From contig JAVHWL010000011.1 of the NCBI GenBank assembly GCA_032159825.1, forward strand, positions 84,003-148,002: a stretch of 64,000 nucleotides of DNA. The letters run 5' to 3'. Origin of the DNA: Acidobacteriota bacterium (GTDB lineage Bacteria; Acidobacteriota; Blastocatellia; Pyrinomonadales; Pyrinomonadaceae). A program made the translations under genes and the position numbers. Within the stretch, counting starts at the first letter, position 1. The number at the start of each line of letters is the position of its first letter. Below the pieces are notes generated by a model. It made no database searches. It was not told the DNA's origin and saw only the letters and a program-made list of their open reading frames with translations. Below, piece after piece: positions 1 through 54,959 of this stretch.

Positions 1-2545
1 AGACGAAGTAGCCTCGCTGCTGAAATTCCAACGAGCGGAAAAAGGCTGAGGAGACTTCAATGCGGTCACAACTGGTGTCTCCGGGCTTGCAGTTATTCAA
101 GGTGTCCTGCCAGCCCTGATAACCGGCAGGCTCAGGCTCACGGTTTAGAAAATCATGATAATGCTGGCGGACGAAAACCGGCGTCTGGTTAATCGGATTT
201 GAAGATGTAGGCGTGCTGTCGTTGTCTATAATCGTCACAGTCGCCGCGCCTGCGCTACCTAGATTAGCTCCCTTCGGATTGTTGAGCATTAGATTCACCG
301 TCTCGTTGCCTTCAACGAAACCATCTTCCGTCACAAGCAAGGTCAGCGTTTTGCTTGTCTCACCATTAGCGAAGTGAAGCGTACCGACCAACGTGGTGAA
401 ATCGTTGCGCTCGGAAGCCGTGCCGCCGCTCGCAACGTAATCTACGAAGACTTCGCCGTTAGTGCCTCCCGAACGAGTAACGGTGATGAAGATACTCCCG
501 TCGCCCTCTCCGACGTTGTAGGCTGCCGCGCCGAATTGCAATGTCTGCTGTTGAGCCGTAAAGGTCGCTGTGAATGTTGTGTTGCTTGAGGGCGTAGAGA
601 TGTTATGAACGCTCGCGCCTGCATCCGACCAGGATGAGAATTGATAAACCACCCCGCCGACCGTTTGCGGCGAGACGGCTCCAAGAGAGCGTGTCATCCC
701 GACGACGCCGACGATCTGTGTTGGAGTGGCGATGGGCTGACCGTCCAGGGTCAGTTGAAGTCCCGCAGGGTTTGTCGCCAGCGTAATCGTAGATGTGCGT
801 GGGTTGATGTCGCGGAAAGATGTATGTGTCAACCCGGCGGAATCTTTCACCGTCAGATGGATGCGATACCAGACGTTGGCCGAAGTCTCGCCCGATGTCG
901 GTATAGTGAAGCTTCCGCTCTGAGAGCCGGTTGTCGCCGGGATGAAGGGATGAACGTGCGTGTCGTGATGAAAATCAACCTGCCAGGTAAAAGCGCTTGC
1001 CGGAAGATTGCCGTCCTCCGGGTCAGTCCCTGTGCCTGAGTAATTGATCGTATCTCCTGCGCTGTAGAGCGTGCCCGCTGCCGGTGTGGTGATGCTGCCG
1101 ACAGGCGGTTGATTCGCCGTCACCGTCAAAGTCGCCTCGCTGCTCGTGGCGTTTCCGAAAGAATTTGAAACGATAACGCGGAACTTCGCGCCGTTATCGG
1201 TTAACGAAACGGACGCCAGCATGTAACTCTGAGAGTTAGCCCCCTGGATGTCGCTGCCGTTTCTCTGCCATTGATAATTAAGCTGCGGCGTGCCGGAGGC
1301 CGCGACGCTAAAGGTCACAGGCTTCCCTTCCGAGATGGTCTGGCTCGCTGGCTGCGTGGTGATAGAGGGAGCTTGATTGCCAGTAAATTGAATTCTGAAA
1401 ACTGCGCCGCTGCCTCTGGCTAGATAGTAGAGATTACCGTCCGGGCCGACTTGTAAATCAACCGGGGAAGAAATGCCGGAGGCAAAGTCCGTCGCGGTGT
1501 TGTTCGCAGGGTCGAATAGCCTGACCCAGCCGCTGCAAAAATCCGCGAAGAAATATTTGCCGACGTAGCTGCTCGGAAACTGGTTAACCGAAGGGTTGTA
1601 GAATGTGCCTCCGGTAATCGCACAGCCGACAGTCGGCCCCGTCCCGTGACCATACGAGAAGAGCGGGCTTCGATAGCTTGGATTAGTAGTCGGGCCTTCC
1701 GTGTTGGGCCAGCCGTAATTCGATCCGGCAATGCCGTCGTCAATCTCTTCCCAGGTGTCTTGCCCGACATCATTGATGAACATCCGGCGCGTCTGGGGCT
1801 GAAAGGCGAATGTATAAGGGTTGCGTAAACCAAGCGCCCAGATAGCGCGGTTGACGCCAGTCGCGGTGTTGAAGAAAGGATTGTCCGACGGGATAGTGCC
1901 GTCCGAGTTGATGCGCAGGACTTTGCCTAGCAGGTTAGTGAGCGTTTGCGAGTTTGAGCTGTTGCCGTTTTCACCGACAGCGATATAGAGTTTGCCGTCT
2001 TCGCCAAAATGCATCGCTCCGCCGTTATGGTTCGACGCGCTGCTCAAATTATTCAACTCAAGGATGACAACCTCGCTATTTGCCGCTGCGACATCGCCGC
2101 TTGCTGTAAAGCGACTCACGCGGTTGTGTACGGGCGCTGCATTGACTGTGTAGTAAACGTAAACGAACTGGTTCGTCGTGAAATTAGGGTCAAACGCGAT
2201 GCCAAGCAGACCGCGCTCTCCCGTCTGGTCGGTGTTGACACTTAAAAACGGAGTTGTTAAGAGCGCGCCGTTCTTGATAACACGAAGCTGCCCTCCTTGC
2301 TGGCAGACGAATAATCTGCCGTCGGGCGCAAATGCCATCGCCGTCGGGTTGGTGAGTCCGGTCGCAACCTGCGTCTCGGCAAAACCCGCAGGAAGCGTTG
2401 CCGCACGCAAAGAAAGCCCGGAAGAGATGAAAACAAGAAACGCGCCGCTAAGAAACCGGATTGTTTTTATTAACCGGGAGGGCTGCTGTAATCGTCCAAC
2501 TCCAATGCGACTCGATTGCTCCGAAATCTCAATAAACAACTTCAT
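1..2545 (-). CDS. Secreted PQQ-dependent (soluble glucose/sorbosone) dehydrogenase-like beta-propeller protein with Ig-like, Calx-beta-like and DUF4214-like C-terminal modules. The 3' end lies outside the window.
   Basis: Absent from the ORF track because it runs off the window edge. My own minus-strand translation from the ATG at 2545 gives MKLFIEISEQ..., a signal-like segment, then GLLGIAFDPNF, NHNGGAMHFGEDGKLY and GLRNPYTFAF. Later come Ig-like repeats and GETSKTLTLLVTEDGFVEGNETV. The frame stays open to position 1. Confidence 0.75.
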   Translation of the reverse strand, partial: MKLFIEISEQSSRIGVGRLQQPSRLIKTIRFLSGAFLVFISSGLSLRAATLPAGFAETQVATGLTNPTAMAFAPDGRLFVCQQGGQLRVIKNGALLTTPFLSVNTDQTGERGLLGIAFDPNFTTNQFVYVYYTVNAAPVHNRVSRFTASGDVAAANSEVVILELNNLSSASNHNGGAMHFGEDGKLYIAVGENGNSSNSQTLTNLLGKVLRINSDGTIPSDNPFFNTATGVNRAIWALGLRNPYTFAFQPQTRRMFINDVGQDTWEEIDDGIAGSNYGWPNTEGPTTNPSYRSPLFSYGHGTGPTVGCAITGGTFYNPSVNQFPSSYVGKYFFADFCSGWVRLFDPANNTATDFASGISSPVDLQVGPDGNLYYLARGSGAVFRIQFTGNQAPSITTQPASQTISEGKPVTFSVAASGTPQLNYQWQRNGSDIQGANSQSYMLASVSLTDNGAKFRVIVSNSFGNATSSEATLTVTANQPPVGSITTPAAGTLYSAGDTINYSGTGTDPEDGNLPASAFTWQVDFHHDTHVHPFIPATTGSQSGSFTIPTSGETSANVWYRIHLTVKDSAGLTHTSFRDINPRTSTITLATNPAGLQLTLDGQPIATPTQIVGVVGMTRSLGAVSPQTVGGVVYQFSSWSDAGASVHNISTPSSNTTFTATFTAQQQTLQFGAAAYNVGEGDGSIFITVTRSGGTNGEVFVDYVASGGTASERNDFTTLVGTLHFANGETSKTLTLLVTEDGFVEGNETVNLMLNNPKGANLGSAGAATVTIIDNDSTPTSSNPINQTPVFVRQHYHDFLNREPEPAGYQGWQDTLNNCKPGDTSCDRIEVSSAFFRSLEFQQRGYFV

Positions 2546-2704
2546 AACTTTCACCCCATGCAGATAGTGCTACGCTCCTCGCCCGGTAAATTCAACGGGC
2601 AATTGAGGGCTAAATATTTAACTCAACTTGGGGCTGAGAGCTTTGGGGGTGGACGTGGAGTATTCTAAAGAAGTTTGGATTTAATTACCAGAAAGAAAAA
2701 ACGC

Positions 2705-2762
2705 GGAACGATGAATGATGAATAAAAGACGCTTGCTTTTCGGCTCATCATTCATCGCTCGG
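2705..2762. repeat. Heptad-arm hairpin, GATGAAY family
   Basis: Arm gaacgatgaatgatga (2707-2722) pairs with tcatcattcatcgctc (2745-2760). It is paralogous to the hairpins at 33196 and 33749. The right arm encodes the last codons and stop of the chelatase N-half gene. Confidence 0.7.
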
Positions 2763-5016
2763 CGTTCATCGTTTCAAAGTTTGCCGCACGCGCCGTTTCT
2801 TCAATCGCACCAAACAACTGTTCGCGCTCATGCTCGGCGGTCGCCTGCCTGTAAGCGGTCAACAACTCTTTGAGCGAGGCAAGCTCTTTGTAGAGACCTG
2901 CGCTTTCAATCGGCGGGGTCAGATAGGAGATCAACTCGGCGTAAGACCTGCGCTTGGCGATAGAGCCTTCCGATGGATTGTTGACGCTGTAGATGTAGAT
3001 GTTCGGTAGCTCTCCGATCAAGCGATCCGGCCAGCACTCGCCGGACAACCCCACCTGCTTGCCCGGCATAAACTCCGTCGCGCCGTGTGTCCCGATATGC
3101 ACGACCGCATCTGCCCGGAAAACTTTTTCGAGGTAAGTATAAAGCGCCATGAACCCGTGATGCGGCGCGCCGCTTCGCGCCATCAGGAGTCTCATCGGAT
3201 CGCCCTCATAGCCGAAAGTTGGTTGCACTCCGAGAAAGATGTTTCCAAGCCGGATGCCCTGAATTAAAAGCTCTCCGCCGAAAGAATTGATGCTACCGGG
3301 CGCGCTGCCCCACTCTTCTTCAATCTCCTCGACAAAGGGACACAGCCGCCTGTACTCGTCAACGCTCATCCGGTAAGCGACGTTTGCAGTCGCGCCGAAA
3401 CTCTCTGAGTTTCCGCCAAGCAGTAGCTCTCGCAACTCATCCGCGCTTGCTGGAACTTCAACTTCATAGCCGTCGCGTTTCAAAGTCCGCAGCATCTCCC
3501 ATGCGCTTGGAAAGACATCAAGATCGGCAGCCGTGCCGATGTTGCCCTTGTTCGGCGGGAAACAGAAAACCAGCAACGCAAGGCGCACATCCACGCGCGC
3601 CGCTGTCTGCAAATGATTCCAACGCTTCAAGCGTCGCGCCAGCCGGTGACAGCGATCTTCCAGGGGCAAGGGTTCGCATTCGCCCGCGCGCAAGCCGCCG
3701 TAAACGAAAGGCTCCGTCGCTCCGTCCAACTCAGGGATGGCGATCTGCATTCCCGCCTGCACAGGATTCAATCCAATCCCTGACTCCTGCCACGACTCAA
3801 CCGTCTGCATATCCAGACTGACGGCTGAGCGAAACGGGCGATTCAACTCACGTAAGAATTTCGCAGCCGCCTCACTATCATTCATCGCAGGCCCGCCAAC
3901 GAAACTGAACCCCGTCAGCGACACCACCTGACTCACACGCGATTTTATTTCAGTCTCAAACTCCCCTTCCTTCTTACCGCCAACTGCCAACTGCCTACTG
4001 CCTATTTCCTTCCGCCCATCGCCTTCAATAAAAAACTTCCCGCATGCCTCGCGGTTGTCCATCAAGGTCGAGATAGCAGGCAGCACAGCAAGTCCTTCGG
4101 CTTCAATCGCACGAATCAGCCCGTCGTAATGTTTTCGCGTGTTGCTCACGATCTGCGGGCGCATCAACAGCAAGCCGATTGTCCTGGCCGGGTCAAGCGT
4201 CTGTTGACCGTTCTTATTGCTTCGACGCTCATACCATTTTCGATATGCAGCGAACGACTCAAAAAGCGTTGGCGCATCCGGGTGATAAATCGCTACCGCA
4301 GGCATCGTCTCCGGCGGCGGGACTTTAATCTCAGCCCGCGTCACACGTTCATCCGGCACATACTGCTGGATCGCATAGAGCACCATCGAGCGAATATTGG
4401 CGGGTGTCGGTTGCAGGAAATAACAGAAGAGATAAAGATAATTCTTGATGTCTCGCAAGCGTCCTGCGCCCGGAACGAAACGCAACAAGCCTGGCAAGCG
4501 ATCAACGAGCTTCAGATACTGTGTGTGATTCCGACTTTTCTTAGCGCGATGAGCACGCGCCTGCTCGCCCATCCACGCGCCAATCCTGCCAGCAAGATGA
4601 TGCGCTCGCTTCTCACCCTCCTGACCCTTTGCCTCGTCTACGCCTTCAAGCGTCTCCGCGCCATCGCTTTTCTTGCCGCCGAACATCCGCCCGAAGTCCA
4701 GCTTCCCCATCCGCGTCCGCCGCATCAGGTCTGGCATACAGTTGATAACAACCACCGCACGATGCCGCGCTTTGTATCGCTCCAGAGAATCCAGCAATCT
4801 CGTCGCATTCTCTCCATCCATCACGTGAATCACGAACACCACATCCGCCCCGCTCAAGTCCCCCTCAACATCCCGCCACTCACCCTCCGTTAACGCCGCG
4901 CCGAAGTTGTACGCCGCAACCCGCAGGTCGAGCGCATACTCACGATTGATCTCGCGCTCCGCCTGCTTGAGAGGAGCGAGAAGACTAGACCCGACATAGA
5001 GAATCGTAACGTTCAT
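2752..5016 (-). CDS. ChlH/BchH/CobN-type chelatase large subunit, N-terminal fragment (about two-thirds of the protein), intact ORF
   Basis: 754 aa. MPDLMRRTRMGKLDFG, FPPNKGNIGTAADLDVF, GVQPTFGYEGDPMRLL, VHIGTHGATEFMPGKQ and NPSEGSIAKRRSYAELISYLTPP match the conserved ChlH/CobN blocks. The ORF stops in the linker just before the LxPxGLHxxG block. Confidence 0.85.
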   Translation of the reverse strand: MNVTILYVGSSLLAPLKQAEREINREYALDLRVAAYNFGAALTEGEWRDVEGDLSGADVVFVIHVMDGENATRLLDSLERYKARHRAVVVINCMPDLMRRTRMGKLDFGRMFGGKKSDGAETLEGVDEAKGQEGEKRAHHLAGRIGAWMGEQARAHRAKKSRNHTQYLKLVDRLPGLLRFVPGAGRLRDIKNYLYLFCYFLQPTPANIRSMVLYAIQQYVPDERVTRAEIKVPPPETMPAVAIYHPDAPTLFESFAAYRKWYERRSNKNGQQTLDPARTIGLLLMRPQIVSNTRKHYDGLIRAIEAEGLAVLPAISTLMDNREACGKFFIEGDGRKEIGSRQLAVGGKKEGEFETEIKSRVSQVVSLTGFSFVGGPAMNDSEAAAKFLRELNRPFRSAVSLDMQTVESWQESGIGLNPVQAGMQIAIPELDGATEPFVYGGLRAGECEPLPLEDRCHRLARRLKRWNHLQTAARVDVRLALLVFCFPPNKGNIGTAADLDVFPSAWEMLRTLKRDGYEVEVPASADELRELLLGGNSESFGATANVAYRMSVDEYRRLCPFVEEIEEEWGSAPGSINSFGGELLIQGIRLGNIFLGVQPTFGYEGDPMRLLMARSGAPHHGFMALYTYLEKVFRADAVVHIGTHGATEFMPGKQVGLSGECWPDRLIGELPNIYIYSVNNPSEGSIAKRRSYAELISYLTPPIESAGLYKELASLKELLTAYRQATAEHEREQLFGAIEETARAANFETMNAER
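3975..4002. repeat. In-frame run of four tandem heptamers (GGCAGTW on the coding strand) inside the chelatase N-half CDS
   Basis: Plus strand reads taccgcc aactgcc aactgcc tactgcc and encodes ...IGSRQLAVGG.... The same heptamer family occurs at 61602-61622. Confidence 0.7.
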
Positions 5017-5030
5017 TCGGCTCGTTTCAA

Positions 5031-5813
5031 TTACGACTTGGCCGCTTCCTTTTTATTTGCCTTCGACATGAGAATTTCAATTGCCTGGAGGATACGCTTT
5101 GCGAGACCCTGCGCTTCTTCGTCATACCTTTCAGGTTCGACGGGTTTGACCTGAATTGCTTGCTCCATCTTACCCGGCAACTCAGAAAGGTTTATTTGAC
5201 TGCTCAAGAGGAGTGGAATAATCGGGATTTTTCTTTCGAGAGTAGCCGCCAGCTCACGCCTCATCCAGGTACTCATAGATTCTGAGATGATAAACACGGC
5301 AACATCCGCTTGGCTAAGTAACTGGCTGATAGAAACCTCCCAGGGCAGCCCGCTCGTTTCGTTCCCCATCAGCAGGACGCGAGCGTCATGCGCGGCCAAG
5401 GCCCTGCTCAAGGCATTCGCAAATGGCGCGTCCGCAATGTTGCAGGAAAAAAAGATAAACCGAGGCGAACTTCCGGCTCCCGCTCCGCCACCTGCGGCCT
5501 CCGATGTCTCATCATCTTGCTTATCTTCTTCGGCAGAGGATTTTAGTTCGAGCCAGCGCTTGAGGCTTCTTTTAGAGCCATCCTTGTGGACGACCTGAGC
5601 GCGAATCAGGAATTCGCCCCAGCCTTCGGAGTCCAAACGAAATTTCGAGCCTCGATCATCAACACGACGAACAGGCTGCGGAAACGAGGGGTGTAAAGTG
5701 TATTCAACATATTCGATTCGATCCAGGGCGTCACTGTCGCCTTCAATCCAGACAGACCATCTCCACCAGTTGTCTTGCTCAGAAGTCGCCTTCTGTTTGA
5801 TGCTGATCCTCAT
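5031..5813 (-). CDS. Prokaryotic YEATS-like (pYEATS) domain fused to a TIR domain
   Basis: 260 aa. Residues 15-78, WWRWSVWIEG...VEYTLHPSFPQPVRRV...FRLDSEGWGEFLIRAQV, match the YEATS signature (LHxSF..P.R, GWGEF.I). An acidic/Gly linker follows. Residues 117-205, RFIFFSCNIADAPFANALSRAL...ADVAVFIISESMSTWMRRELAATLERKIPIIPLLL, match the TIR_2-type pattern (FISY-like start, S.W...E, K.IIP). A strong RBS (aggagaagg) overlaps the upstream stop. Confidence 0.75.
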   Translation of the reverse strand: MRISIKQKATSEQDNWWRWSVWIEGDSDALDRIEYVEYTLHPSFPQPVRRVDDRGSKFRLDSEGWGEFLIRAQVVHKDGSKRSLKRWLELKSSAEEDKQDDETSEAAGGGAGAGSSPRFIFFSCNIADAPFANALSRALAAHDARVLLMGNETSGLPWEVSISQLLSQADVAVFIISESMSTWMRRELAATLERKIPIIPLLLSSQINLSELPGKMEQAIQVKPVEPERYDEEAQGLAKRILQAIEILMSKANKKEAAKS

Positions 5814-5823
5814 TTGCCTTCTC

Positions 5824-6504
5824 CTATATCTGGCTTAACTCAATTTGCACCCATTGCGGTGTGGCGACTGACTGCCATTTCGCGTCTTGCAGCTTGACCT
5901 CAAGCTGGATTATATAGTCATCCCGCACGCCTACCAGATAGACGAACGTTCCACCGGTTTCACGAATGGCCTCCTCGGTTTCGTTCCATTTCGTCCACTT
6001 TTCGGCATAAAACCGGTAACGGCATTTGATTTCACCCTGACTTACGGTGCGCGCCAGATCGGGCGGTAAGATCATCACTTTGAGTGTGCGGCCAATCTCC
6101 CGCTTCCACAGCCCGATAGTATCGGAGAGCCTGAGAAAAGCCGGGAGAGGGTTCTGGCGATCAAAAGGAATGTACTCGTGCGCAGCGTACATGCCGCCAA
6201 CGTCCACATCGGTCTCTATGAGCGCGATAGTGCGCAGCTTATTATCCCGCGCGTAGTTCAACTCTTCCTGCACCCATTGATGGGTTGTATATCTGGTGTT
6301 TGTGATTTTGTCGCGTTGGGTAAGAAGAGCAATCAGCGCGTCCGAATCGGCAATGCGCTCCTTCACGGCTGGCGTGAGCGCGTCACCGCCCAGGTTTTCT
6401 CCGGTAACTGCCGGGACATCGTGGCTTCCAAGCAACTGTTGCACCTGGTTAGCCAACTCACGGTCATTGGGTCTGAAAGCGAATGCAAGGAATATTCTTT
6501 TCAT
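5824..6504 (-). CDS. TIR-like domain protein with an uncharacterised beta-rich C-terminal domain
   Basis: 226 aa. The N-terminal 115 aa, IFLAFAFRPNDRELANQVQQLL...SDALIALLTQRD...THQWVQEELNYARDNKLRTIALIE, follow the TIR_2/TIR-like flavodoxin-fold pattern. The C-terminal 100 aa (KVMILPP...CRYRFYAEKWTKW...FVYLVGVRDDYIIQLEVKL) are strand-rich and match no family I recognise. Confidence 0.65.
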   Translation of the reverse strand: MKRIFLAFAFRPNDRELANQVQQLLGSHDVPAVTGENLGGDALTPAVKERIADSDALIALLTQRDKITNTRYTTHQWVQEELNYARDNKLRTIALIETDVDVGGMYAAHEYIPFDRQNPLPAFLRLSDTIGLWKREIGRTLKVMILPPDLARTVSQGEIKCRYRFYAEKWTKWNETEEAIRETGGTFVYLVGVRDDYIIQLEVKLQDAKWQSVATPQWVQIELSQI

Positions 6505-6632
6505 AGTTCGGCTCCGTTGAGGGTTAGGTGAAAGCAGAGCGGGGTTTGCCTGCGGCCATAGGCTAATCGCTGAAAAGAGCAGTTAGCTAGTAAGAGCGAT
6601 ATTCCAGAGCAAGGCAGCTATCATTTCACAGG

Positions 6633-8387
6633 TTAATCAATCCCTTCAAGCTGATCTTCCAGCCCGGCGAAAATTTCTCGCAACCGCTCAAGGGCGTAAG
6701 TCTCCACAGCCCAGAAGCCGCGCCCGTGCGCTTCCAGCAGACGCCCGACGAGCGAACGCGCCGAATGTGGATTAAGCTCACGCAGGCGGTCGAGCATCTC
6801 TTTGTCAAAGACGAAGGTGTTCGCAACCTCCGTATAGACCCAATCATCAACCGCGTCTGCGGTCGCACTCCAGCCGAAGGTGTTGCTGATGTGGCTTTCG
6901 ATTTCGGCTACACCGCGAAAGCCGTGCTTGAGCATCCCTTCGTACCATTTCGGATTGAGCGTCTTGGCGCGCGTTTCCAGGCGCACAGTCTCTTCGAGCG
7001 AGCGTATTTTGGAATCGCGCGAGAGCGTGTCTGACAGATAAACGGCTGGGCGCACGCGCGCTCGATTCTCAACCGCCTTCGTGACGCCGCCCAGGTATTC
7101 AAAGTAATGATCCACGTCCGTGATGCCTATCTCGAACGTGTCTATGTTTTGATACGTAGCTTCGACCTTCGAGAGAGCGCGCTCCATCGCATGGCGCGCT
7201 TCGCGTCCTTCGACCGCTCTGCCCTCGGCGTCGCGCCCGTAAGCGAAACACTTGCGCGTGACGAAAAGATCGCCGAGCGTATCGTCCTGCTCCCACTGCG
7301 AATCCATCACCATGAAGTTGACGTTCGTGCCGTAGTTGCCCGGCGCGTTTGAGAAGACGCGCAAGGCCGCCTCGTCAAAGAGGCATCCGTCCTGTTTCAT
7401 CTGCTCATCAATGTTGCCCCGCACATAATTCATCTCCGGCGATTCGTCGAGTACGGCGACGGCGCGGACGGCTTTGTCCAGAAGGAGAATCGTCGCGCCG
7501 AAGAGATCGCGGAAAATTCCTGAAACCGTCATCACGACATCAATGCGCGGGCGTCCCAGCTTTTCGAGCGGGATTATTTCAACTCCGGTCGCGCGGTTCA
7601 AACTATCGCGCACGGGGCGCACGCCCAAAAGCCACAGAGCTTGCGCGACGCCTTCGCCCTGCGTCTTGATGTTGTCCAATCCCCAGAGCACTAAGGCCAT
7701 CGCACGCGGATATGTGCCATGTTCCGAGAGGTGTCGTTCGAGCAAACTGCTGACGACTCGCTCGGCTCGCGCGTATGCAACACGGGAAGGAACCAGGTAG
7801 GGGTTGACGGCGTGCGTGTTTCTCCCTGTCGGTAGAATGTCAGGATTCTGCACGATGTCCGCGCCCGGCCCAGGCTCTATATATTCGCCTCGCAAAGCGC
7901 GCGTCAGACTCTCAAGCTCGCCGTTGGTCGCCAACTGATCGCAGATTCTTGAGAGCAGGGAGAAAATGTTGCGCGAGGCTTCCCTCTTCACACGCGCAGT
8001 CGCTTCCAACCAGAGAGACGCAGCCTCCGCACCCTGCTTGATGAAAAGCTCTATCGCCGCATGGACAATCTCGTCAACGCGCTCGCGTTCCGACAATCGC
8101 TCAACATTCTCTTTACCGGCACGGAGCAGTTCAGTGTATCCGTTGAAACCTGAGCCTTCCGCAACCAGGTCGGGCAAAGCTCGCGCGTTCGCTTCGGGCC
8201 TGTCAAACGACGCTACCATCCTCAGCATGTCAACACGCGCCGCTTCCTCCGGCACACGACCGAAGACGTGCAAGCCCGTCGGTATCAGGCGCTGCTCAAT
8301 CTCCACCACCTGCTCGTAAAGCTCAAGCACGCGGCGGTCGCGCTCCTTCGACGTGAGCGTTTCAATCGTTGAGTTTTCTTCGCTCAC
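6633..8387 (-). CDS. ChlH/BchH/CobN-type chelatase large subunit, C-terminal fragment, intact ORF
   Basis: 584 aa. The GTG start overlaps the upstream TGA (GTGA). RLIPTGLHVFG, EYIEPGPGADIVQNPDILPTGRN, LWGLDNIKTQGEG, GRPRIDVVMTVSGIFRD, LNPKWYEGML and EAHGRGFW match the C-terminal third of ChlH/CobN. It begins exactly where the N-half (2752-5016) ends. Confidence 0.85.
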   Translation of the reverse strand: MSEENSTIETLTSKERDRRVLELYEQVVEIEQRLIPTGLHVFGRVPEEAARVDMLRMVASFDRPEANARALPDLVAEGSGFNGYTELLRAGKENVERLSERERVDEIVHAAIELFIKQGAEAASLWLEATARVKREASRNIFSLLSRICDQLATNGELESLTRALRGEYIEPGPGADIVQNPDILPTGRNTHAVNPYLVPSRVAYARAERVVSSLLERHLSEHGTYPRAMALVLWGLDNIKTQGEGVAQALWLLGVRPVRDSLNRATGVEIIPLEKLGRPRIDVVMTVSGIFRDLFGATILLLDKAVRAVAVLDESPEMNYVRGNIDEQMKQDGCLFDEAALRVFSNAPGNYGTNVNFMVMDSQWEQDDTLGDLFVTRKCFAYGRDAEGRAVEGREARHAMERALSKVEATYQNIDTFEIGITDVDHYFEYLGGVTKAVENRARVRPAVYLSDTLSRDSKIRSLEETVRLETRAKTLNPKWYEGMLKHGFRGVAEIESHISNTFGWSATADAVDDWVYTEVANTFVFDKEMLDRLRELNPHSARSLVGRLLEAHGRGFWAVETYALERLREIFAGLEDQLEGID

Positions 8388-10531
8388 AATACTTTATCTA
8401 CTGCGCTTCCAAGTTGAACGTAACGCGCGCCGATCTGGTCGGCCAGTTTCTGTCCTTCACCGCTTGAAGTGAAACGGTTCTGCGTATCAACTACAATTTT
8501 CGTCACACTCGATTGCTGCGCTGCCAGACCAAGCAGGCCAAGCTCCTCTTCAATTAACTGTCGGCGTGTGCCTTGATTCTGCGCCCTCTCGGTTCGCAGC
8601 GAAACATTAGCGCGGCCATCCGTGAAGAGCAGGAGGACGATTCGCTCTGCACCCTGACGCGCTGCGCGTTCAGCCAATTCGAGCGAGCGTGCCAGACCTG
8701 CGGCAAGAGGCGTTGCGCCGCCGACGCTCAACTCATCAAGCAATCGCCTGGCGCGCCATACACTCGCGCTCGGCGGCAGAAGCACTTCAGCATTTTGTCC
8801 GCGAAAGCTCACCAGCGCCACTCGATCACGCCTGATGTAAGACTGCTCAAGCAAACGCACGAGCGCGCCCTTCGCCTGCGCGATTCTATTGAGCGCCATG
8901 CTCCCGGATGTATCAATGGCGAAAATGAAAAGCGTGCCCGCCTTACGCTTGAATCGCTTGTAGCGGAGAGCGTCCGCAAGGATGGGGGCCGGGGAAGAAG
9001 GGCGGCCTGTTGCAGGCTTCGCAGCTTTTTTCACACCGATCCCCGGCCACCGACACCCGACTCCCCTCTCCTGTATCGCTGCTCTCAAGGTCGCATCAAG
9101 AGCGATTCTCGCGCCGGGTGTTTTGGTAGCTGTGGCGCGGACGTAGCGACCATGTAGGGCGCTTTCGGAAGTCCGGCGAGAGGCTGTGGAGCGTTGCCTT
9201 GAATGGTTACGCTCGATCTGTTTTGGATACTTGAGAGGATTCGAGTCGAAGGCATCATCAGGCAAGCGGGCTTCAAGCGCGGGAGGCGCTGTGCGTTCGA
9301 GTCCACCATTGCTCGCGCCTTCCGGGTCTTCGCCAGTTCGTTTGCCTGCAACGCCATTACCACCTGCGCTGCCCTGTGATGAAGATGTGGGCGGCCTATT
9401 TTGTTCATGCTTGTCTTGGGACTGCTCAGTCTCTTCATCAAGCGGGGCTGAAGGAAAAAGCTTGTCGAGGCGTTGTTCGATGCGAGAGCTTCCGCCAGCC
9501 TGCTCTAAAGGATCGCGGCGCAGGCGATGTCTGAGCGCCATCGTCGCCACTCGCCGGATGTCTGTGGCTGAAACTTCTTTGCGACCTTCAAAGGCAGCGA
9601 GAGCGCGTGCGGCGCGGGAGATGGTTAGCTCCCCGCGATGCCCGTCAACCTTGAGTTGCCCGCAGAGTTCGGCGATGCTGCGCAGGAGTTCGCCAGAGAG
9701 TTTTACCGCATTTAGATTCTTGCGTGCGCGCACGAGCCGACGACGCAAGCTCTCTTGCTCTTTCTCCTGAAGGGAGCGAAAACCATCAGGGTCGCGCTCA
9801 AAACTTTCGCGTTGCTCGACGATCCGCACACGCTCATCTAAATCATCAACGGTCTTTACCTCAACGTGTAGTCCGAAACGGTCGAGCAGTTGCGGGCGAA
9901 GCTCCCCTTCTTCCGGGTTGCCGGAGCCGACCAGCACGAAGCGCGACGGATGCTCAATTGAAATTCCCTCACGCTCAACCACGTTTCGCCCTGTCACCGC
10001 TACGTCGAGCAAAAGGTCAATCAAGTGATCTTCGAGCAGGTTCACTTCGTCAATGTAGAGGAAGCCACGATGAGAGCGCGCAAGCAGTCCGGGTTCAAAA
10101 ACCTTAACGCCTTCATGAAGCGCGCGTTCGATGTCTATTGTGCCGCAGACACGATCCTCGGTCGCGCCCAGAGGTAGATTAACTACGTGTACAGCCGAAC
10201 GCTCGCGCGGAAGTTTTTCATCCAGCACGAGACGCGCGTGGCAATCATCGCAAAGATTCATCTCATCGGCAGGGTCGCAGCCGTAGAGACAATCACGCAC
10301 GCGCGCAATGTGCGGCAGAAGGTCTGCGAGAGCGCGCACCGCTGTTGATTTCCCCGTGCCGCGATGCCCCATAATCAGCACGCCGCCGATTGACGGGTCT
10401 ATCACGTTGAGCAGCAGCGCGAGTTTCATCTCCTCCTGCCCGACGATTGCAGCGAATGGATAGACTGAAGGCCGTTTGCGGCGAAGCGTTTGATTATTCT
10501 TTGGCGCGATGTCTGCGCGGCGTTCCTTCAT
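8384..10531 (-). CDS. Chelatase ATPase subunit, ChlI/BchI AAA+ module fused to a ChlD-type vWA domain
   Basis: 715 aa. Contains [12 protein letters not shown], Walker [10 protein letters not shown], a Cys-rich CLYGCDP..CDDC insert and Walker [12 protein letters not shown] Pro/Ser/Gly-rich linker leads to a C-terminal vWA domain with MIDAS DTSGS. Confidence 0.85.
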
Positions 10532-13544: not shown

Positions 13545-15929
13545 TTATCGTGTGGTAAGCACAGAGCTAACGCCGATAAGAACGAAGAGGATGATGAGGA
13601 GAGGCAAAATAATTAAAGGCAATCTCGATACGGTTCGATTTACTTCGCCTTCATAAAAATCCGCGATTCTTCCCAGAGATGCGTCCAGACAACCGGTTTG
13701 CTCGCCAATCTCAACCGATACGCTGGCTATGGTTGGAAACACTTCGGTCATTGGCGCAGAAAAAGTCTCGCCGCGCTCCACGCCTGATCTGATCTTCTCA
13801 ATCGCTTCGGCGAAAACTGAATTGCCGACCATCTTCGCAGTGATGTCCAGAGAAGCAAGGATCGGCACACCTGACGAGAGCAGGGTTGCGAGGATGCGCC
13901 CAAAGCGTGCGGTAGCATGCTTACGTAGCAACGGGCCGACGAATGGCAAGCGCAACAGCAGAACATCTTTTTGTCTGTGCCCACGACTTGTTTTGCTATA
14001 CACGCCTAGCGCCAGCAACGCCGCGACGATGGCAGCCAGGAAAATCACGCCGCCTGTGCTGCCGAGGAATGATGCCGTAGCTGCGCCTACACTTGTCCAA
14101 AAGCGCAGATACCAGTTCAGCCCGCCCGCATTGCCCTGCGCGTTGTGTAAAGCGGCGGTGATCGAGAGCATCAGGATAACCAATAAGAGGGCAAGCGCCG
14201 AGAGCGGATACAATATCGCCAGCCAGATTTTTCGCCGCAGGCTGATGCTTTTTTCCAGAGCCGTATGGAGGCGTGACAGCACACGGTCCACAATCCCGCC
14301 CGTTTCGCCCGCCTCGACCATATTAACGTAAAACTCGTCGAAAACTTCCGGGTGGTGCTTCATCGCCGCTGCCAGGGTTGAGCCTTGGCCGACATCTGAA
14401 ATGACTTGATCGAGAACCTGCTTGAAGTATCTGTTCTTCTGCTCCTGGGCAAGCACTTCGAGAGATGATACGAGAGGGATGCCTGCTTCAACCATATATG
14501 AAAACCAACCCGTGAAGCTCACCAAATCACGCAGGCTGACTTTCTTCCGCCCCGTGCCGGAAGCGAAGAGAGATGATTCGGGACGTTCCTCACGAAAAGA
14601 GGTCAGGATAATTTGCTCGCGCCGCAGGAGCATTCTCAAGGCTTCACTACTTTCAGCTATGCGCTCGCCAGCGATGAGTTCGCCGATTCTGTTACGACCC
14701 TTATAATGATAATGCCTGTGGAATATTTTCTTCTTCTTTTTCCTGGCATCTTTAACCCGCAAGGCCCCGACCAGTTTTTTCTCAGCCGCCGAAGAAGAGA
14801 GATTAACCGCCAGAAACGGAGCATCGCTGCCACGCAAAGCGAGGCCGACTGCGACAGGCATCTCCGACCCGATCTCCGAGAGGCGCTCAGAGCTGAAGCG
14901 TCGCTCGTCGTACTTGATACGACGAAACGGGTCAAGCGGCTCAACCGGTATCATGAGCCGATGAGAAAGATTTTCTCTCAGTCCCTTGAGCCTGGAGCCT
15001 CCGCCGGAAATCAATATCTTTCCAACGCTCGTTTCCTCATCCGTTGAAATCGCGCTGTAGAAGTCCAGGCTCTTTTGAATTTCGAGCGCGAGATTTTCTG
15101 TGGTTGCTTCAGTCAGCTTCTCAAAGTCTCCTTCCAGTGCCAGGCGTTTAGCGATGACCTCTATCACCTCATTGATTTCCGTCCCTACCGTTTCAAGCTC
15201 ATCAGCCAGGCCAAGCTTGGCTGCCTCTGCCTGCTCGAACGTGAGACCCAACTCTTTACTTATTTGATCCGTATATTGGTCGCCCCCCATCGAGGCATCA
15301 TGGGTAAATGCTAAACGATTCCCTTTCATGATATGGATAATCATCAGAGAAGCGCCGATGTGAACCAACGCTACCAAAGAATCATCTGAAGGCTGGTAGT
15401 TAAACGTGTAGCAGTTCTGTAGAGCCAGAGCACAGCAGTCTATGATGTCAGCCCGTTTGCCCGCGAGTTGTAGGGTGTGCTCCAGATTCTGCACTCTTAT
15501 CTCCCTACAGATAGCGATCAAGACCTTGATTGAATACTCATCTGAATCAATGACCTGGTAGCCGAGCCGCACGTCCGACATATCGAAGGGGCAATACTCC
15601 TCCGCGTGCCAGTCAATAGATTCCCTCAACTCTTCTTCCGACATCGGCGGGACTTCAATAGTCTTGAGGATGACGGAATTGCCACTGACGCCGGATGCTA
15701 TGTTCCGCGTCGTTAGGTGATGGTCGCCGAAGAGTTTTGAAATAGCCCTGGCGGACTCCGTGTGGTCTAAAATCTGCCCCTCTTCTATTGTGCCGCGCGC
15801 GAGCGGCTCAACCCCTAACCCGGTCAAGGTGAGCTTGTCGTTTTTGCCCGACAACTCAACCGCCTTGACGGAGCTTGCGCCTACGTCCAAGCCGACGAAT
15901 CTTCTCTTGTGGAATATTCCCTTAAACAT
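13545..15929 (-). CDS. PilM-like actin-fold ATPase fused to a full PilC/GspF-type platform protein
   Basis: 794 aa. The N-terminal 350 aa (FVGLDVGASSVKAVEL..., ISGGGSRLKGL, PVAVGLALRG) match PilM. After a KKKKK junction come a PilC-type N-terminus (YKGRNRIGELIAGERIAESSEALRMLLRREQI) and two T2SS-F domains with three TM segments. Confidence 0.75.
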   Translation of the reverse strand: MFKGIFHKRRFVGLDVGASSVKAVELSGKNDKLTLTGLGVEPLARGTIEEGQILDHTESARAISKLFGDHHLTTRNIASGVSGNSVILKTIEVPPMSEEELRESIDWHAEEYCPFDMSDVRLGYQVIDSDEYSIKVLIAICREIRVQNLEHTLQLAGKRADIIDCCALALQNCYTFNYQPSDDSLVALVHIGASLMIIHIMKGNRLAFTHDASMGGDQYTDQISKELGLTFEQAEAAKLGLADELETVGTEINEVIEVIAKRLALEGDFEKLTEATTENLALEIQKSLDFYSAISTDEETSVGKILISGGGSRLKGLRENLSHRLMIPVEPLDPFRRIKYDERRFSSERLSEIGSEMPVAVGLALRGSDAPFLAVNLSSSAAEKKLVGALRVKDARKKKKKIFHRHYHYKGRNRIGELIAGERIAESSEALRMLLRREQIILTSFREERPESSLFASGTGRKKVSLRDLVSFTGWFSYMVEAGIPLVSSLEVLAQEQKNRYFKQVLDQVISDVGQGSTLAAAMKHHPEVFDEFYVNMVEAGETGGIVDRVLSRLHTALEKSISLRRKIWLAILYPLSALALLLVILMLSITAALHNAQGNAGGLNWYLRFWTSVGAATASFLGSTGGVIFLAAIVAALLALGVYSKTSRGHRQKDVLLLRLPFVGPLLRKHATARFGRILATLLSSGVPILASLDITAKMVGNSVFAEAIEKIRSGVERGETFSAPMTEVFPTIASVSVEIGEQTGCLDASLGRIADFYEGEVNRTVSRLPLIILPLLIILFVLIGVSSVLTTR

Positions 15930-16953: not shown

Positions 16954-17718
16954 CTATCTATTGTAATTAACAATCTCCGCGAAACTCTCCGCCTTGAGGC
17001 TTGCTCCGCCGACGAGCGCGCCGTCTATATCGGGTTGGGCCATCAGGCCCGTGATGTTGTCGGGTTTTACTGAGCCACCGTAAAGAATCCGTAATGCTCC
17101 GGTCGCTTCCGGCGAGTGTCTTTGCGCGAAAACGCGCCGGATGAAAGCGTGCATCTCCTGCGCTTGTTCCGGCGTCGCTGTGCGTCCTGTGCCAATCGCC
17201 CAGACAGGCTCGTAAGCTATGATGATACGGTCGAGGTCTGAGGCTGTCAACCCGCTAAGCCCGCCCTCCAACTGCCCACTCACCACCGACTCCGCGTTCC
17301 CTTGATCGCGCTGCGCCAGGCTCTCACCAACGCAGACGATTGCAGTCAACCCTGAGACAATCGCAGCCTGCACCTTCTTTCTCACAACCGAATCCAAGTC
17401 GAAGTAGTATTGCCGCCGCTCGGAGTGGCCGATGATGACAAAGGACGCTCCGGCATCCAACAGCATGTTGGCTGTGACCTCGCCCGTATGCGCGCCCTCC
17501 TCGATTTCCGTCGAACAGTTCTGCCCGGCCACCTTGATATTTGACCCTTCGAGCCGGTCGGATACAGTCTTCAAAGCCGTATAGACCGGAGCAATCACGA
17601 CCTCGCAATGATTGGCATTCGCCACCAAAGGCTTCAAGGCCAAAGCGGTCTCGACAGACTCCGAGATCGTCTTGTACATCTTCCAGTTTCCGGCGATAAC
17701 AGGTTTACGCATGGTCAC
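16954..17718 (-). CDS. tpiA: Triosephosphate isomerase
   Basis: Contains [18 protein letters not shown] and [10 protein letters not shown]. Confidence 0.95.
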
Positions 17719-17720
17719 AT

Positions 17721-18356
17721 CTAAAAATCCAAATCTCCGTCTATTGTTTCCAGTTCAATTTCTTGTGCGACAAGTTCGCGCCAAACTTGCAGAAGACTTT
17801 CGTCTGCGCCTGAGCTTCGCAAAATTTGCGTTACTTCGCCTGCTTCATTCTTCAACTCTGGAAAAGTTAAGAGCAAAACTGCTAAATCACGCCAGTCTGT
17901 GCCGGACTTAGGCTTTCCGCGACGGGCATGATACGAGACCACTTTGCTGGCAACCAACTCAGCAGGCGAGAGGACTTTGATTCCTTCGATTGTTCGCGTT
18001 CCCGGCAATTGCGCGACAGGTCTCACATCAGCCAAATGGCGATTCCCTGTTTTTTGCACCTGATAAATACGAAAACCTTTGCTTTGACCAACCTCGCGCA
18101 CACGCACGGCAATATGAAACTTTTCGCTCAACATCTGGCGCAGTTCTTCAGCAAACTCTTTGGCGTGGAGCGAGAGCAGATCAATGTCCTGTGTCATGCG
18201 CGGCTCATCAACGTAAGCGTTCACAGCCTGCGCGCCGAACACAGCGACATCCTCGCGCCCGCGCAAAAATTCAAGCATCGTCTCCTGAATCGTCGCCAGT
18301 GGCAGCGGCTCACGCATCGCAAACTCCCTGAATGTCAAAACTCCCGTACTGAACAT
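17721..18356 (-). CDS. Nucleotidyltransferase-fold protein, AbiEii/DUF1814-like
   Basis: 211 aa. Contains [22 protein letters not shown] (G-x-A...R.T.DID pattern) and a distal [26 protein letters not shown] (K...R...D..D..L). It abuts the pgk stop (0 nt) and the tpiA start (2 nt). Confidence 0.55.
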
Positions 18357-19550
18357 TTATTTATCGCTCAAAGCCGCCACACCTGGCAGCTCATCACCTG
18401 CAAGGAATTCCAAAGTTGCGCCGCCGCCCGTAGAGATGTGTGTGATCCGATCTGCGACGCCCGCTTGCGTGATAGCCGCAACGGAATCTCCGCCTCCGAC
18501 AATGACGGTCGCGCCTCTATCTGCTGCCTCCGCGACGGCCCGCGCAATTCCAACCGTTCCTTCATCGAAGGGCTTCTCTTCAAAGACACCCATCGGCCCG
18601 TTCCAGATAACCGTCTTCGCATCCTTCAATGCATTGCTGAAATGCGCGATGGTCTCAACGCCGATGTCTAAGCCGACCAGCCCGGCGTTCGTAAATTCAA
18701 TCGGAATGGTCTTACGACTGTGCAGCGGGTCGTAAGAGTCAACGACCTGATGATCCGTCGGCAGCAGTAGCTCAACTCCAGCTTCTGCCGCGCGCTTTTT
18801 GATCTGGCGCGCCGTTTCCAGCTTATCGTCTTCAACCAGGGATTTGCCAATGGTGAATCCTTCAGCTTTGAAGAACGTGTAAGCCATCGCGCCCCCGATC
18901 AGAAGTTTGTCAACGCGACGATCAATCAGCGCGTTGATGACCGCAATCTTGTCGGAGACTTTCGCGCCGCCGAGGATTGCCACAAACGGATGCTCAGGGT
19001 TGTTGATGACGCGGCCCAAATAATCCAACTCTTTCTCCATCAAGAGTCCCGCCGCAGACCTTTCAACAAATTTCGTGATGCCTGCGGTCGAAGCATGCGC
19101 GCGATGCGCCGCTCCGAAAGCATCGTTCACGTAAAGATCGCAGAGACTCGCCAACTCTTTTGCGAACCCCACGTCGTTCTCCTCTTCCTCTTTATGAAAA
19201 CGCAGATTCTCAAGCAGCAGCACTTCACCATTATGAAGCGCATCAACTTTCGCCTTCACTTCATCGCCAATGCAATCCACAGCAAACCCAACCTGCTTGC
19301 CAAGCAGCGACGATAGATGCTCTGCCACAGGCCGCAGGCTGTACTTCTCAACACGCTCGCCCTTCGGCCTGCCCAGATGCGACGCCAGGACGACGCGCCC
19401 GCCCTGCCCGGTCGCATACTCAATCGTCGGCAACGCCCCGCGTATCCGCGTATCATCCTCAACCTTGCCTTCCTTAATTGGCACGTTGAAATCCACACGA
19501 ATAAAAACGCGCTTGCCCTTGAGGTCGAGGTCTTTGATGGAAAGCTTCAT
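18357..19550 (-). CDS. pgk: Phosphoglycerate kinase
   Basis: Contains [21 protein letters not shown] and a GGGDS-containing C-terminal domain. Confidence 0.95.
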
Positions 19551-26534: not shown

Positions 26535-26723
26535 GAAAGCCCCAAAGGGGCGAAATAAGATAGCCTGTGGCATCGCCACAAGGGTTAGATTCGAGTTCAT
26601 TCCGCAAGCCCTGTAAGGGCGAAATAACTTATTCCGCCCTTACAGGGCTTGCGATGAAAATCATCACTTGTATCCTGGGGCGCGTGCCCCAGGCTATTAC
26701 ATTGTCGCCCCTTCGGGGCTTTT
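26535..26723. repeat. MITE-like nested-palindrome element (mosaic of mini-hairpins), copy A
   Basis: Terminal inverted repeats gaaagccccaaaggggcgaaataagatagcc and ggctattacattgtcgccccttcggggcttt. Internal hairpins are tgtggcatcgccaca, gcaagccctgtaagggcg...cgcccttacagggcttgc and cctggggcgcgtgccccagg. The second copy is at 28352-28501. Confidence 0.8.
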
Positions 26724-26826: not shown

Positions 26827-28257
26827 ATGTTCTCTCGTCCCAAGAGTCGAACGCGGTTAGTGCTGGCGATGCTGGCGGGCATTGTGCTGCTCGCGGGTCT
26901 CTTCGCAGTCGCTCTATTCATTCTTGCGCCGGATGCGGCTTCGGCGCGTGGGCCGGTCCTGCTCACAGTCTTCATCATCATTCTCGTCGTCAGTCTTCTT
27001 TCCGTCACCCTGCTCTTGCGCCGCCTGCTCAGACCTTACAGGCAGTTGGTCGGCGAGGCGGAGCGCGCTCCCGTCGCGGCACGCTCGAATAAAGGGCGCG
27101 ATGAGGGACAGTTTGTGCTTGAGACTTTCAAGTCAGTCGTCGCGCAGTTGCAGGCGCAGCAGCGGGAGCTTGAGGCGTTGAGCGCAGAGGCCAGCCGACG
27201 CGCGGCTTCGGCAGAAAAGTTCAGCGAGCGAATCGTCGCCAGTGTTCCGTCAGGTCTTCTGGCTTTCGACGCGAGCGGGCGTGCGACTGTGGTCAACGCT
27301 CCGGCGCGCGCGCTTGTTGAAGCCAACGGTCAAGCCGAAGGTCGGAGCGTTCGTGAGTTGCTTGGAGCTGCGCCCGATCTGGCGGAGATGGTCGAGCGTT
27401 GTTTGCAGACGGGAGAGGTTTACAGGCGCGAAGAGGTGATGGCGAACGGCGCAAACGGGCAGGTGCGGCGATTGGGCGCAACCGTTGCTCCGATTGATCC
27501 CGCTCCAGACCAGACAGAGCGCGGCGCACTCTGTCTCGTTACGGACTTGACGGAGGTCTCGCAACTGCGTGAGCAGGTCGCGCTCAAGAATAATCTGGAG
27601 AGCCTGGGCGAGATGTCCGCCGGGCTTGCTCACGAATTCAAGAATGCGCTGGCGACGTTGCACGGCTACGCGCAACTGATGCAGAACCTCAAACCGGGCG
27701 AGAGCGGGCAGACGGCTTCAAGCGCGTTGCTTCAGGAAGTGCGTAACCTTTCAGAGATGGTGACAGCCTTTCTCAACTTCGCGCGCCCGCAGCCGCTCGA
27801 CCTGGCGGATGTGTCCTTGCGCGAGCTAATCGAAGATTGCGCGAAGGAGTTACAGGCGCTTTACGAGGAGCGGCGCGTTGAGCTAATCATCGCGGGCGAC
27901 TTCTCGGACGTGCGCGCGGACGAGCGCATGCTGCGTCAGGCACTGCTCAATCTCTTGCGGAACGCTGCCGAAGCAGTTAGCGAAGAAGATTCGCGGCGGC
28001 GCGTTACGGTGCGCGGCACAAGCAACCGCGATGCATCTGGAAAAGTCTGGACGGCAATCGAGATTCAGGATACAGGAGAGGGTATCCGGCCCAATGATCT
28101 GCAACGCATCTTCATCCCCTTCTTCACCACGAAATCGAAAGGTCATGGAGTCGGCCTCGCCCTCGCGCACCGCGTCGTCACAGATCACGGCGGCACACTC
28201 GCGGCAGCCAATGCTCCTGACGGCGGCGCACTTTTTACGATTAGATTACCGGAGTAA
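26827..28257 (+). CDS. Membrane sensor histidine kinase (PAS, HisKA, HATPase)
   Basis: Two N-terminal TM segments, H-box LAHEFKNALATL, N-box LLNLLRNAAEA and G-boxes DTGEGI / GHGVGL. Confidence 0.85.
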   Translation: MFSRPKSRTRLVLAMLAGIVLLAGLFAVALFILAPDAASARGPVLLTVFIIILVVSLLSVTLLLRRLLRPYRQLVGEAERAPVAARSNKGRDEGQFVLETFKSVVAQLQAQQRELEALSAEASRRAASAEKFSERIVASVPSGLLAFDASGRATVVNAPARALVEANGQAEGRSVRELLGAAPDLAEMVERCLQTGEVYRREEVMANGANGQVRRLGATVAPIDPAPDQTERGALCLVTDLTEVSQLREQVALKNNLESLGEMSAGLAHEFKNALATLHGYAQLMQNLKPGESGQTASSALLQEVRNLSEMVTAFLNFARPQPLDLADVSLRELIEDCAKELQALYEERRVELIIAGDFSDVRADERMLRQALLNLLRNAAEAVSEEDSRRRVTVRGTSNRDASGKVWTAIEIQDTGEGIRPNDLQRIFIPFFTTKSKGHGVGLALAHRVVTDHGGTLAAANAPDGGALFTIRLPE

Positions 28258-53569: not shown

Positions 53570-53613
53570 GCTATCAGAAATTCTGACGCCTTTACTCCTG
53601 GCCCCTGCTTTTT

Positions 53614-54918: not shown

Positions 54919-54959
54919 AGGTTCGTCAGTTATCTCCCTCCAACACTCTAAAATTTCAC

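Follow-up and report, generated by a model that had tools for sequence, protein, structure and literature searches.

A putative BchH-type chelatase large subunit encoded in two pieces and in permuted gene order across a clade of Acidobacteriota

How does a chelatase large subunit of the ChlH/CobN type come to be encoded by two separate genes, with the gene for its C-terminal part (hereafter C-part) preceding the gene for its N-terminal part (N-part)? This question is raised by a minus-strand locus in a 64,000-nucleotide stretch of DNA from a member of the Pyrinomonadaceae (assembly GCA_032159825.1, contig JAVHWL010000011.1, positions 84,003 to 148,002; hereafter the window), in which two genes encoding TIR-type proteins lie between the two parts. 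The comparative analyses presented here suggest that the locus probably encodes a functional, ancient two-polypeptide BchH-type large subunit with permuted gene order, whose translationally coupled junction was later colonised by exchangeable cargo. The locus comprises five consecutive open reading frames (ORFs), at the positions and on the strand given in an earlier note made from the DNA letters of the window, and one spacer:

8384..10531, minus strand: ChlI-vWA fusion (ChlID), 715 amino acids (aa), from Pfam and NCBIfam
6633..8387, minus strand: ChlH/BchH C-terminal part, 584 aa, GTG start, from Pfam and NCBIfam
6505..6632, minus strand: non-coding spacer of 128 bp between the C-part stop and the first TIR gene, from the sequence
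5824..6504, minus strand: cargo gene 1 (TIRa), 226 aa, with an N-terminal TIR-like domain and an uncharacterised C-terminal part, from a weak Pfam TIR_2 match
5031..5813, minus strand: cargo gene 2 (pYEATS-TIR), 260 aa, from Pfam
2752..5016, minus strand: ChlH/BchH N-terminal part, 754 aa, with DUF3479 and the first half of the CobN/Mg-chelatase profile, from Pfam and NCBIfam

The sequence at 8387-8384 reads GTGA, the ChlI-vWA stop codon overlapping the GTG start of the C-part, and the spacer has the length that the earlier note had reported for it.

The two parts were compared with profiles and structures of the family. The N-part covers positions 3-540 and the C-part positions 549-1084 of Pfam PF02514 (CobN-Mg_chel, length 1090); on the BchH model TIGR02025 they span 2-690 and 695-1271 of 1271, and on the Synechocystis ChlH chain (PDB 4ZHJ) they align to 180-745 and 756-1351. 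An in silico join of the N-part and the C-part (1338 aa) yields one unbroken alignment to the ChlH model (positions 20-1310 of 1313). Both the clean split at a linker and the exact complementarity that had been proposed by eye are thus upheld, with no piece lost or duplicated in the TIGR02025, 4ZHJ and joined alignments. Each part alone scores below the H-subunit equivalog cut-offs. The joined sequence reaches 1494 bits on NF009140 (cut-off 1300), 1401 bits on TIGR02025 (cut-off 829) and 1174 bits on NF009942 (cut-off 1166), and it stays under the cut-off of each of six CobN models (best score 675, against a cut-off of 1468). Along its full length, the window protein shares 43-49% identity with bona fide ChlH/BchH.

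By alignment, the break falls at about native Synechocystis residues 726-735, some 70 residues past E660 and 180-200 residues ahead of the start of the independently stable C-terminal fragments (6YS9 'T_926' and 5EWU). The break is not simply between two halves of the ChlH body. The initial idea of a cut between domains 'III+IV' and 'V+VI' is not supported.

Among genomes scanned at one per species, 55 Acidobacteriota loci were retrieved; they carry the labels Pyrinomonadaceae, Blastocatellia, Acidobacteriota and, in two cases, Bryobacteraceae, and hence fall in two classes. In each of the 53 loci with both halves, the C-part gene is followed by the N-part gene on the same strand, while the 27 loci that the scan gave for Chloroflexi and cyanobacteria all present a single N-to-C ORF; the N-then-C split form was found in none of the 53. 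The permuted order first noticed in the window is therefore shared by every one of these loci, and, as had been argued from that order, a simple insertion cannot explain it, since relatives devoid of any insert are also arranged C-then-N. The lengths of the 240 best C-part cluster representatives, retrieved with two queries placed at the two extremes of the clade, all fall within 513-650 aa. Clustering of the protein library at 50% identity leaves a single 582-aa representative for the entire split clade, and the next matches are full-length proteins at 47-51% identity. The split and the permutation are ancient, clade-wide and not peculiar to the window genome, which makes a long-read or PCR test for mis-assembly unneeded. 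Other short matches (P0123, P0227 and P0246) were inspected as candidates for independent splits elsewhere in the family and rejected; they have no start methionine, P0123 starts at the first base of its own contig, and all three look like truncated ORFs.

The position of the split clade within the family was inferred with neighbour-joining trees computed separately for the N-part and the C-part columns. The two trees are congruent and show a monophyletic split clade, whose neighbours are the BchH of Chloroflexi and that of Chloracidobacterium, a phototroph belonging to the same class, in which BchH is an unsplit protein of 1275 aa. The next group is cyanobacterial ChlH, with ChlH-like proteins of Actinomycetota and Limnochordales and CobN-like outgroups further out. 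Together, the curated hidden Markov model (HMM) cut-offs and these rough trees point to a place in the BchH/ChlH Mg-chelatase branch, and not in CobN.

In Synechocystis ChlH, residues H621, E660 and H1174 are essential, and E625, Y651 and Y653 line a proposed proton channel (PMC13297055). With an offset applied for the 20 additional N-terminal residues that the PDB chain has relative to native numbering, alignment equates N-part residues H644, E648, Y674, Y676 and E683 with Synechocystis H621, E625, Y651, Y653 and E660, and C-part H427 with H1174. The mapped N-part residues are invariant in 50 of 50 clade N-part sequences, and both H427 and the C-part motif DVDHYFE are unchanged in 55 of 55. 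In this superfamily, two histidine motifs, of HFGTHG and DHxxE type, lie on opposite sides of the cavity and face one another (PMC12583661); here they are thus borne by different polypeptides. Comparison with three relatives yields dN/dS ratios of 0.13-0.16 for the N-part, 0.10-0.14 for the C-part and about 0.2 for ChlID, indicating that both halves are under purifying selection. These low ratios and the invariance of the catalytic residues across the clade bear out the view that both ORFs are intact, and the location of H644, E648 and E683 on the N-part and of H427 on the C-part strengthens the prediction, already made in the earlier note, of an enzyme assembled from two polypeptides.

Structural prediction of the C-part alone with AlphaFold2 gave a model of moderate confidence (mean pLDDT 64.8), mostly helical over its first ~165 residues, for which the top Foldseek matches are ChlH (E ~1e-34). 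Several of its low-confidence stretches fall on invariant motifs, as may be expected of interface or active-site segments modelled without their partner.

The gene preceding the C-part is predicted to encode the motor of the enzyme. ChlID is laid out as a ChlI-like AAA+ motor, a long low-complexity linker and a ChlD-type vWA/MIDAS domain (Pfam AAA_lid_2, Mg_chelatase, AAA_5 and VWA_2), and its translation shows a Walker motif, a Walker B motif (FLYIDEV) and a MIDAS motif (DTSGS). In NCBIfam it matches TIGR02030 (BchI-ChlI; 513.6 bits, cut-off 467, residues 24-359), TIGR02031 (BchD; 504.4 bits, cut-off 499.6) and TIGR02442 (669.9 bits). The C-part is usually preceded by ChlID in the relatives, and by separate chlI and chlD genes in the deeper-branching loci L031, L042, L046 and L047. 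The AAA+ part of ChlID is 67-70% identical to the separate ChlI of L031, L042 and L046, compared to 33-36% for their ChlD. The Pyrinomonadaceae ChlID is a ChlI-like AAA+ domain fused to a vWA domain, as if the AAA+ domain of ChlD had been lost. No X_XXY_YYZ heptamer indicative of a programmed frameshift was found in codons 300-540, and the ORF is uninterrupted.

The genomic context was examined in the window and in its relatives. The earlier observation that no cobalamin or bacteriochlorophyll genes lie nearby holds across all 64 kb. The only other tetrapyrrole genes in the window are a cytochrome-c-assembly-like gene, hemA (glutamyl-tRNA reductase) and hemD (uroporphyrinogen-III synthase), at 52745-55769 on the plus strand; hemA and hemD, which belong to the common trunk, lie at 53.6-55.8 kb, about 45 kb from the chelatase. 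Upstream of the operon, most relatives carry cytochrome c maturation genes of system I or II (ccmABCEF or resB/ccsA). Downstream, most present genes for a glutaredoxin-like protein, a Rieske protein, a cytochrome b, a membrane protein, a multihaem cytochrome of ~1,180 aa and a 300-aa protein (for example L001, 16889-21758, as well as L009, L046 and L047). The cytochrome b gene is found in 33 of the 44 loci with enough downstream flank, both Bryobacteraceae loci included. In the window, the N-part is followed by an 856-codon open frame (1-2569, minus strand) that runs off the window start and shares 86% DNA identity with the GSDH/Calx-beta/DUF4214 gene following the N-part in L083. This frame is thus the same GSDH/Calx-beta gene that follows the N-part in relatives, and the window shares their synteny within its bounds.

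On sequence grounds, a Mg/protoporphyrin-type reaction is favoured, and metal and substrate are the weakest part of the proposed reading. The earlier note had called the substrate unknown; the HMM cut-offs and the rough trees narrow the enzyme to the BchH/ChlH branch. The foremost alternative, which we regard as possible though doubtful, is that the protein is not a Mg-chelatase but a cobaltochelatase, acting as CobN with ChlID in place of CobS/CobT, or an enzyme inserting or removing Fe, Ni or Zn. Its carriers are not known phototrophs and have no Mg-branch genes nearby, in several phyla CobN is believed to work with motors of the ChlI/ChlD type, with single chlD-type genes able to supply both small subunits (PMC9227772), and TIGR02442, which matches ChlID at 670 bits, is annotated as a putative cobaltochelatase. 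The large subunit, however, lies above three of three Mg-chelatase H cut-offs and below six of six for CobN, and it branches inside phototroph BchH/ChlH, away from the CobN-like outgroups. Moreover, neither a cobalamin riboswitch (Rfam) nor a cob gene was found in the window or in six related loci. The cytochrome c maturation genes and the Rieske/cytochrome b/multihaem cluster that flank most relatives would suit a role with another metal, and the family includes a haem dechelatase, HmuS (PMC12583661); the acidobacterial protein nevertheless falls short of HmuS by about the size of the HmuS methionine-rich insertion.

The junction between the C-part and the N-part was scored in the 53 loci as follows:

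Stop/start overlap, mostly ATGA, GTGA or TTGA: 14 loci
Gap of 0-30 nt: 12 loci
Gap of 31-200 nt: 16 loci
Insert of 0.5-1.5 kb (class of inserts above 400 bp): 12 loci

No insert is present at the junction in 41 of the 53 loci. Where there is one, its Pfam content comprises a PD-(D/E)XK (PDDEXK_3) protein, a VapBC-like pair, DUF2059 proteins and a caspase-DUF2059 protein, and it differs among the closest kin of the window: L083 and L084 (C-part 92% identical) carry DUF2059 at the junction, and L085 (90%) a small ORF and a PIN-domain gene. The TIRa and pYEATS-TIR pair of the window is also found at the junction in four further lineages, represented by L088 (C-part 91% identical), L089 (84%), L090/L091 (81%) and L095 (67%); the identities of these pairs to the window pair fall to 56/49% and 60/45%. 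TIRa matches Pfam TIR_2 with an E-value of 1e-5 and 26.5 bits, under the gathering score of 28, and pYEATS-TIR matches pYEATS at 7.8e-23 and TIR_2 at 2.5e-11. There are 25 homologues of pYEATS-TIR in 5.8 billion proteins, and a TIRa partner stands immediately upstream in every homologue context examined (L088-L095). The TIR pair is a mobile two-gene module and the C/N junction a cargo slot. The TIR genes are secondary, exchangeable cargo, and the junction is ancestrally a translationally coupled stop/start overlap. The RNA fold of the 128-bp spacer is no better than that of shuffled sequences (z -0.85).

Another toxin-like gene lies between two operon genes elsewhere in the window:

17721-18356, minus strand: AbiEii-like toxin ORF (211 aa), between pgk (18357-19550) and tpiA (16954-17718)

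The pgk and tpiA genes are adjacent in related genomes, and the ORF thus constitutes a second case of toxin/defence cargo at an operon junction in the window.

The nature of this cargo raises the question of whether ChlID and ChlH are themselves part of an NTP-dependent conflict system akin to MoxR-vWA, with the TIR, caspase and PIN genes as effectors. The AAA+ plus vWA architecture of ChlID resembles MoxR-vWA pairs, and the junction cargo is rich in TIR, pYEATS, Peptidase_C14, PIN and PD-(D/E)XK domains. In L092-L094 (~6294-8690), moreover, a TIR pair 50/38% identical to that of the window lies outside any chelatase context, followed by a Peptidase_C14 caspase gene and adjoining a 1,880-aa CHAT/DUF7379 protein, which suggests a larger conflict-system setting for the TIR module. 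About three quarters of the chelatase loci are nonetheless free of cargo, which varies between close relatives, and the AbiEii-like insertion between pgk and tpiA shows that cargo enters unrelated operons too. PADLOC returned no defence model for either TIR protein and a marginal match only for ChlID. With the active-site residues invariant and 43-49% identity to bona fide ChlH/BchH, we deem a conflict system very improbable.

Separate functions for the two halves, for instance a porphyrin-binding or regulatory C-part with no joint enzyme, would be in keeping with the ability of C-terminal ChlH fragments to fold and crystallise alone (6YS9 and 5EWU). The halves, though, stand side by side and in one and the same order wherever the locus is long enough for both, their trees are congruent, catalytic residues are invariant on each side of the break, and the lone C-part model has low-confidence conserved segments, all of which leaves this explanation with a very slender chance.

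That the gene was split in this lineage by a mobile element, be it the TIR cassette or another, is suggested by the location of the window cargo exactly between the halves, as it is in the four further lineages with the TIR pair. An insertion, however, would leave the order N-insert-C, most relatives carry no insert and 14 of them have overlapping codons, and the cargo (DUF2059, VapBC-like or the TIR pair) differs at 90-92% C-part identity. No flanking direct or inverted repeats longer than chance were detected around the TIR cargo, no recombinase, integrase or transposase gene was found there, and no tRNA boundary is present at the junction. Since relatives are mostly without insert and cargo varies among close kin, the TIR pair is not the cause of the split, and a causal role for cargo is scarcely credible. 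Finally, an assembly artefact or a decaying pseudogene (a gene really contiguous, or the remnants of a disrupted chlH) can be dismissed almost outright, for although the window and all related loci seem to derive from metagenome assemblies and a few relatives show extra N-part frame breaks, the order and break point are identical in 53 independent loci and ~240 protein clusters from many samples and assemblers, with dN/dS of 0.10-0.16, invariant catalytic residues and precise stop/start overlaps.

Taken together, these data favour an ancient, functional BchH-type large subunit made of two polypeptides. According to this reading, the locus would encode an ATP-driven class I tetrapyrrole chelatase of the BchH/ChlH branch, in which a catalytic subunit of ~1,340 residues is produced as two chains. 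The C-part and N-part chains would associate non-covalently and rebuild the ChlH cage, and the active site would form only in the heteromer. Translational coupling would normally keep the halves stoichiometric, the cargo separating them in the window, where all five genes are probably still co-transcribed. More speculatively, the position of the C-part gene beside ChlID may aid assembly, by analogy to the contact between domain VI and the adaptor in cobalt chelatase; in the cobalt chelatase holoenzyme, the C-terminal helical domain VI is the main vWA-adaptor contact (bioRxiv 10.64898/2026.07.21.739949). The enzyme would act on a protoporphyrin-like substrate and insert a divalent metal, Mg2+ being the most likely.

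Presumably an unsplit bchH-type gene was split and permuted a single time, in an ancestor within the Acidobacteriota. The comparisons are consistent with a single event before the sampled Blastocatellia and Bryobacteraceae diverged, or with transfer between them. A lenient tblastn search detected no relic of a duplicated half, either as a pseudo-N upstream of the C-part or as a pseudo-C downstream of the N-part, and this lack of a vestige leaves tandem duplication with reciprocal deletion, a circular intermediate, and fission with rearrangement indistinguishable as routes to the present order.

Several observations weigh against this reading. The expression, association and activity of the halves are predictions. 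Family membership by sequence fixes neither metal nor substrate, as HmuS, a haem dechelatase, likewise has the equivalent of E660, and the neighbour-joining trees carry no support values. Mg-branch genes (bchM, acsF/bchE, bchLNB and others) were found neither in the 64-kb window nor within 10 kb on either side of the related loci, which leaves Mg-protoporphyrin without an obvious fate. No ChlI/ChlD-type gene was found in the flank upstream of the C-part in ten loci (L025, L037, L039, L044, L045, L049, L051, L052, L055 and L095), and where the neighbours were identified (L095, L045 and L049, for example) a DHOR-type dihaem gene and ccm genes are there instead; in the genomes of these ten loci the motor must be encoded elsewhere. 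The N-part is found in two or three ORFs in L002, L050, L055 and L095, which may reflect indel errors of sequencing or assembly or real decay; to judge by their contig or bin names, L002 and L050 may derive from long-read assemblies. In the window itself, the TIR insert abolishes the stop/start coupling, and a search for promoters and terminators around the cargo gave no signal above shuffled expectation.

Two further features of the window lie away from the chelatase locus. Four Acido-Lenti-1 RNA motifs, at 26538-26582 (minus), 26674-26720 (plus), 28355-28399 (minus) and 28454-28498 (plus), form two inverted pairs that bracket a PAS histidine kinase gene (26827-28257) and support an acidobacterial origin of the window. 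A 794-aa ORF at 13545-15929 (minus strand) combines PilM (actin-like) with two T2SSF/PilC domains, a fusion also present in L083. PilM and T2SSF/PilC are normally separate type IV pilus proteins.

The ChlH and CobN subunits each consist of one very large chain, and structural work is only now resolving their mechanism; a natural split would mark a tolerated cut site of the cage, and the split form offers a handle to express and label the parts of the active site separately. The junction, in turn, provides a natural case of toxin/immune cargo in an operon between the halves of one enzyme. The question of which metalloporphyrin is made is also posed by the strong purifying selection on a BchH-type chelatase in soil bacteria that are abundant and have no known chlorophyll synthesis. 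We tentatively suggest, while considering it rather unlikely as it stands, that a dominant group of soil Acidobacteria (Pyrinomonadaceae, other Blastocatellia and Bryobacteraceae) keeps a BchH-derived two-piece Mg-type chelatase for a non-photosynthetic purpose, possibly a metalloporphyrin cofactor or signal and perhaps tied to the flanking Rieske/cytochrome b/multihaem and ccm genes, or that these lineages have a metabolism related to (bacterio)chlorophyll that has gone unrecognised. On that view, the permuted two-gene form would be a fixed, functional architecture whose essential operon also gives immune cargo a place to land. Each of the elements, namely the enzyme family, ChlID-type motors and cargo hotspots, is already known separately. 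In the full-text literature we found no description of a split or permuted chlH, bchH or cobN or of Pyrinomonadaceae chelatases, and a fixed two-gene, swapped-order large subunit in non-phototrophs appears to be undescribed.

With regard to known systems, the closest likeness is to the H subunit of Mg-chelatase (Synechocystis ChlH, 4ZHJ and 6YSG; Chloracidobacterium BchH), whose catalytic residues H621, E625, E660 and H1174 are kept here, with a ChlI/ChlD-type partner encoded adjacently. That subunit is one chain of ~1,200-1,400 aa with its domains running N-to-C, whereas here two ORFs are present in all 53 loci, the C-part gene first. The lineages described here are not known as phototrophic and have no bch neighbours in the searched flanks. 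Furthermore, Mg-chelatase has separate I and D subunits, and the Pyrinomonadaceae have one ChlI-vWA fusion.

CobN systems with ChlID-type or frameshifted chlD motors (PMC9227772; CobSTN, bioRxiv 10.64898/2026.07.21.739949) show the same class I combination of motor, vWA adaptor and large subunit in non-phototrophs and, like the window, have one chlD-like gene supplying both AAA+ and vWA functions. Unlike them, the acidobacterial large subunit is split and scores under every CobN cut-off, its ChlID lacks a slippery heptamer, and the searched loci offer neither cob context nor a B12 riboswitch. The haem dechelatase HmuS (PDB 9D26) shares the superfamily and fold (Foldseek), and both facing histidine motifs are common to the two (PMC12583661). 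HmuS is ~25% identical, ATP-independent and without a ChlI/D partner, as opposed to the ChlID motor encoded here. The stretch left unaligned to HmuS residues 622-929, which spans the break, has ~180 aa here against ~310 aa in HmuS, and this shortfall of 120-130 aa is close to the size of the 120-residue methionine-rich domain IV insertion of HmuS.

The junction resembles defence and toxin-antitoxin hotspots, in which the same fixed spot between conserved genes holds varied small accessory genes in close relatives. It departs from the usual hotspots in that the slot lies between two halves of one enzyme, within an operon, and without an integrase, tRNA or repeat boundary. The two-gene swapped order is also the intermediate in models of circular permutation by fission and fusion or by duplication and deletion, of which transhydrogenases and DNA methyltransferases are the classical cases. 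Neither the 53 loci nor the 150 best cluster representatives include a fused, circularly permuted C-N protein; the C-part ends in a stop codon at every locus, and overlapping ORFs (-1 or -4 nt) are in different frames. As in the postulated intermediate, the acidobacterial loci present adjacent genes, in swapped order, for the C- and N-terminal parts of what is elsewhere a single chain, and they would thus provide a clean, dated instance of the two-gene state that these models postulate.

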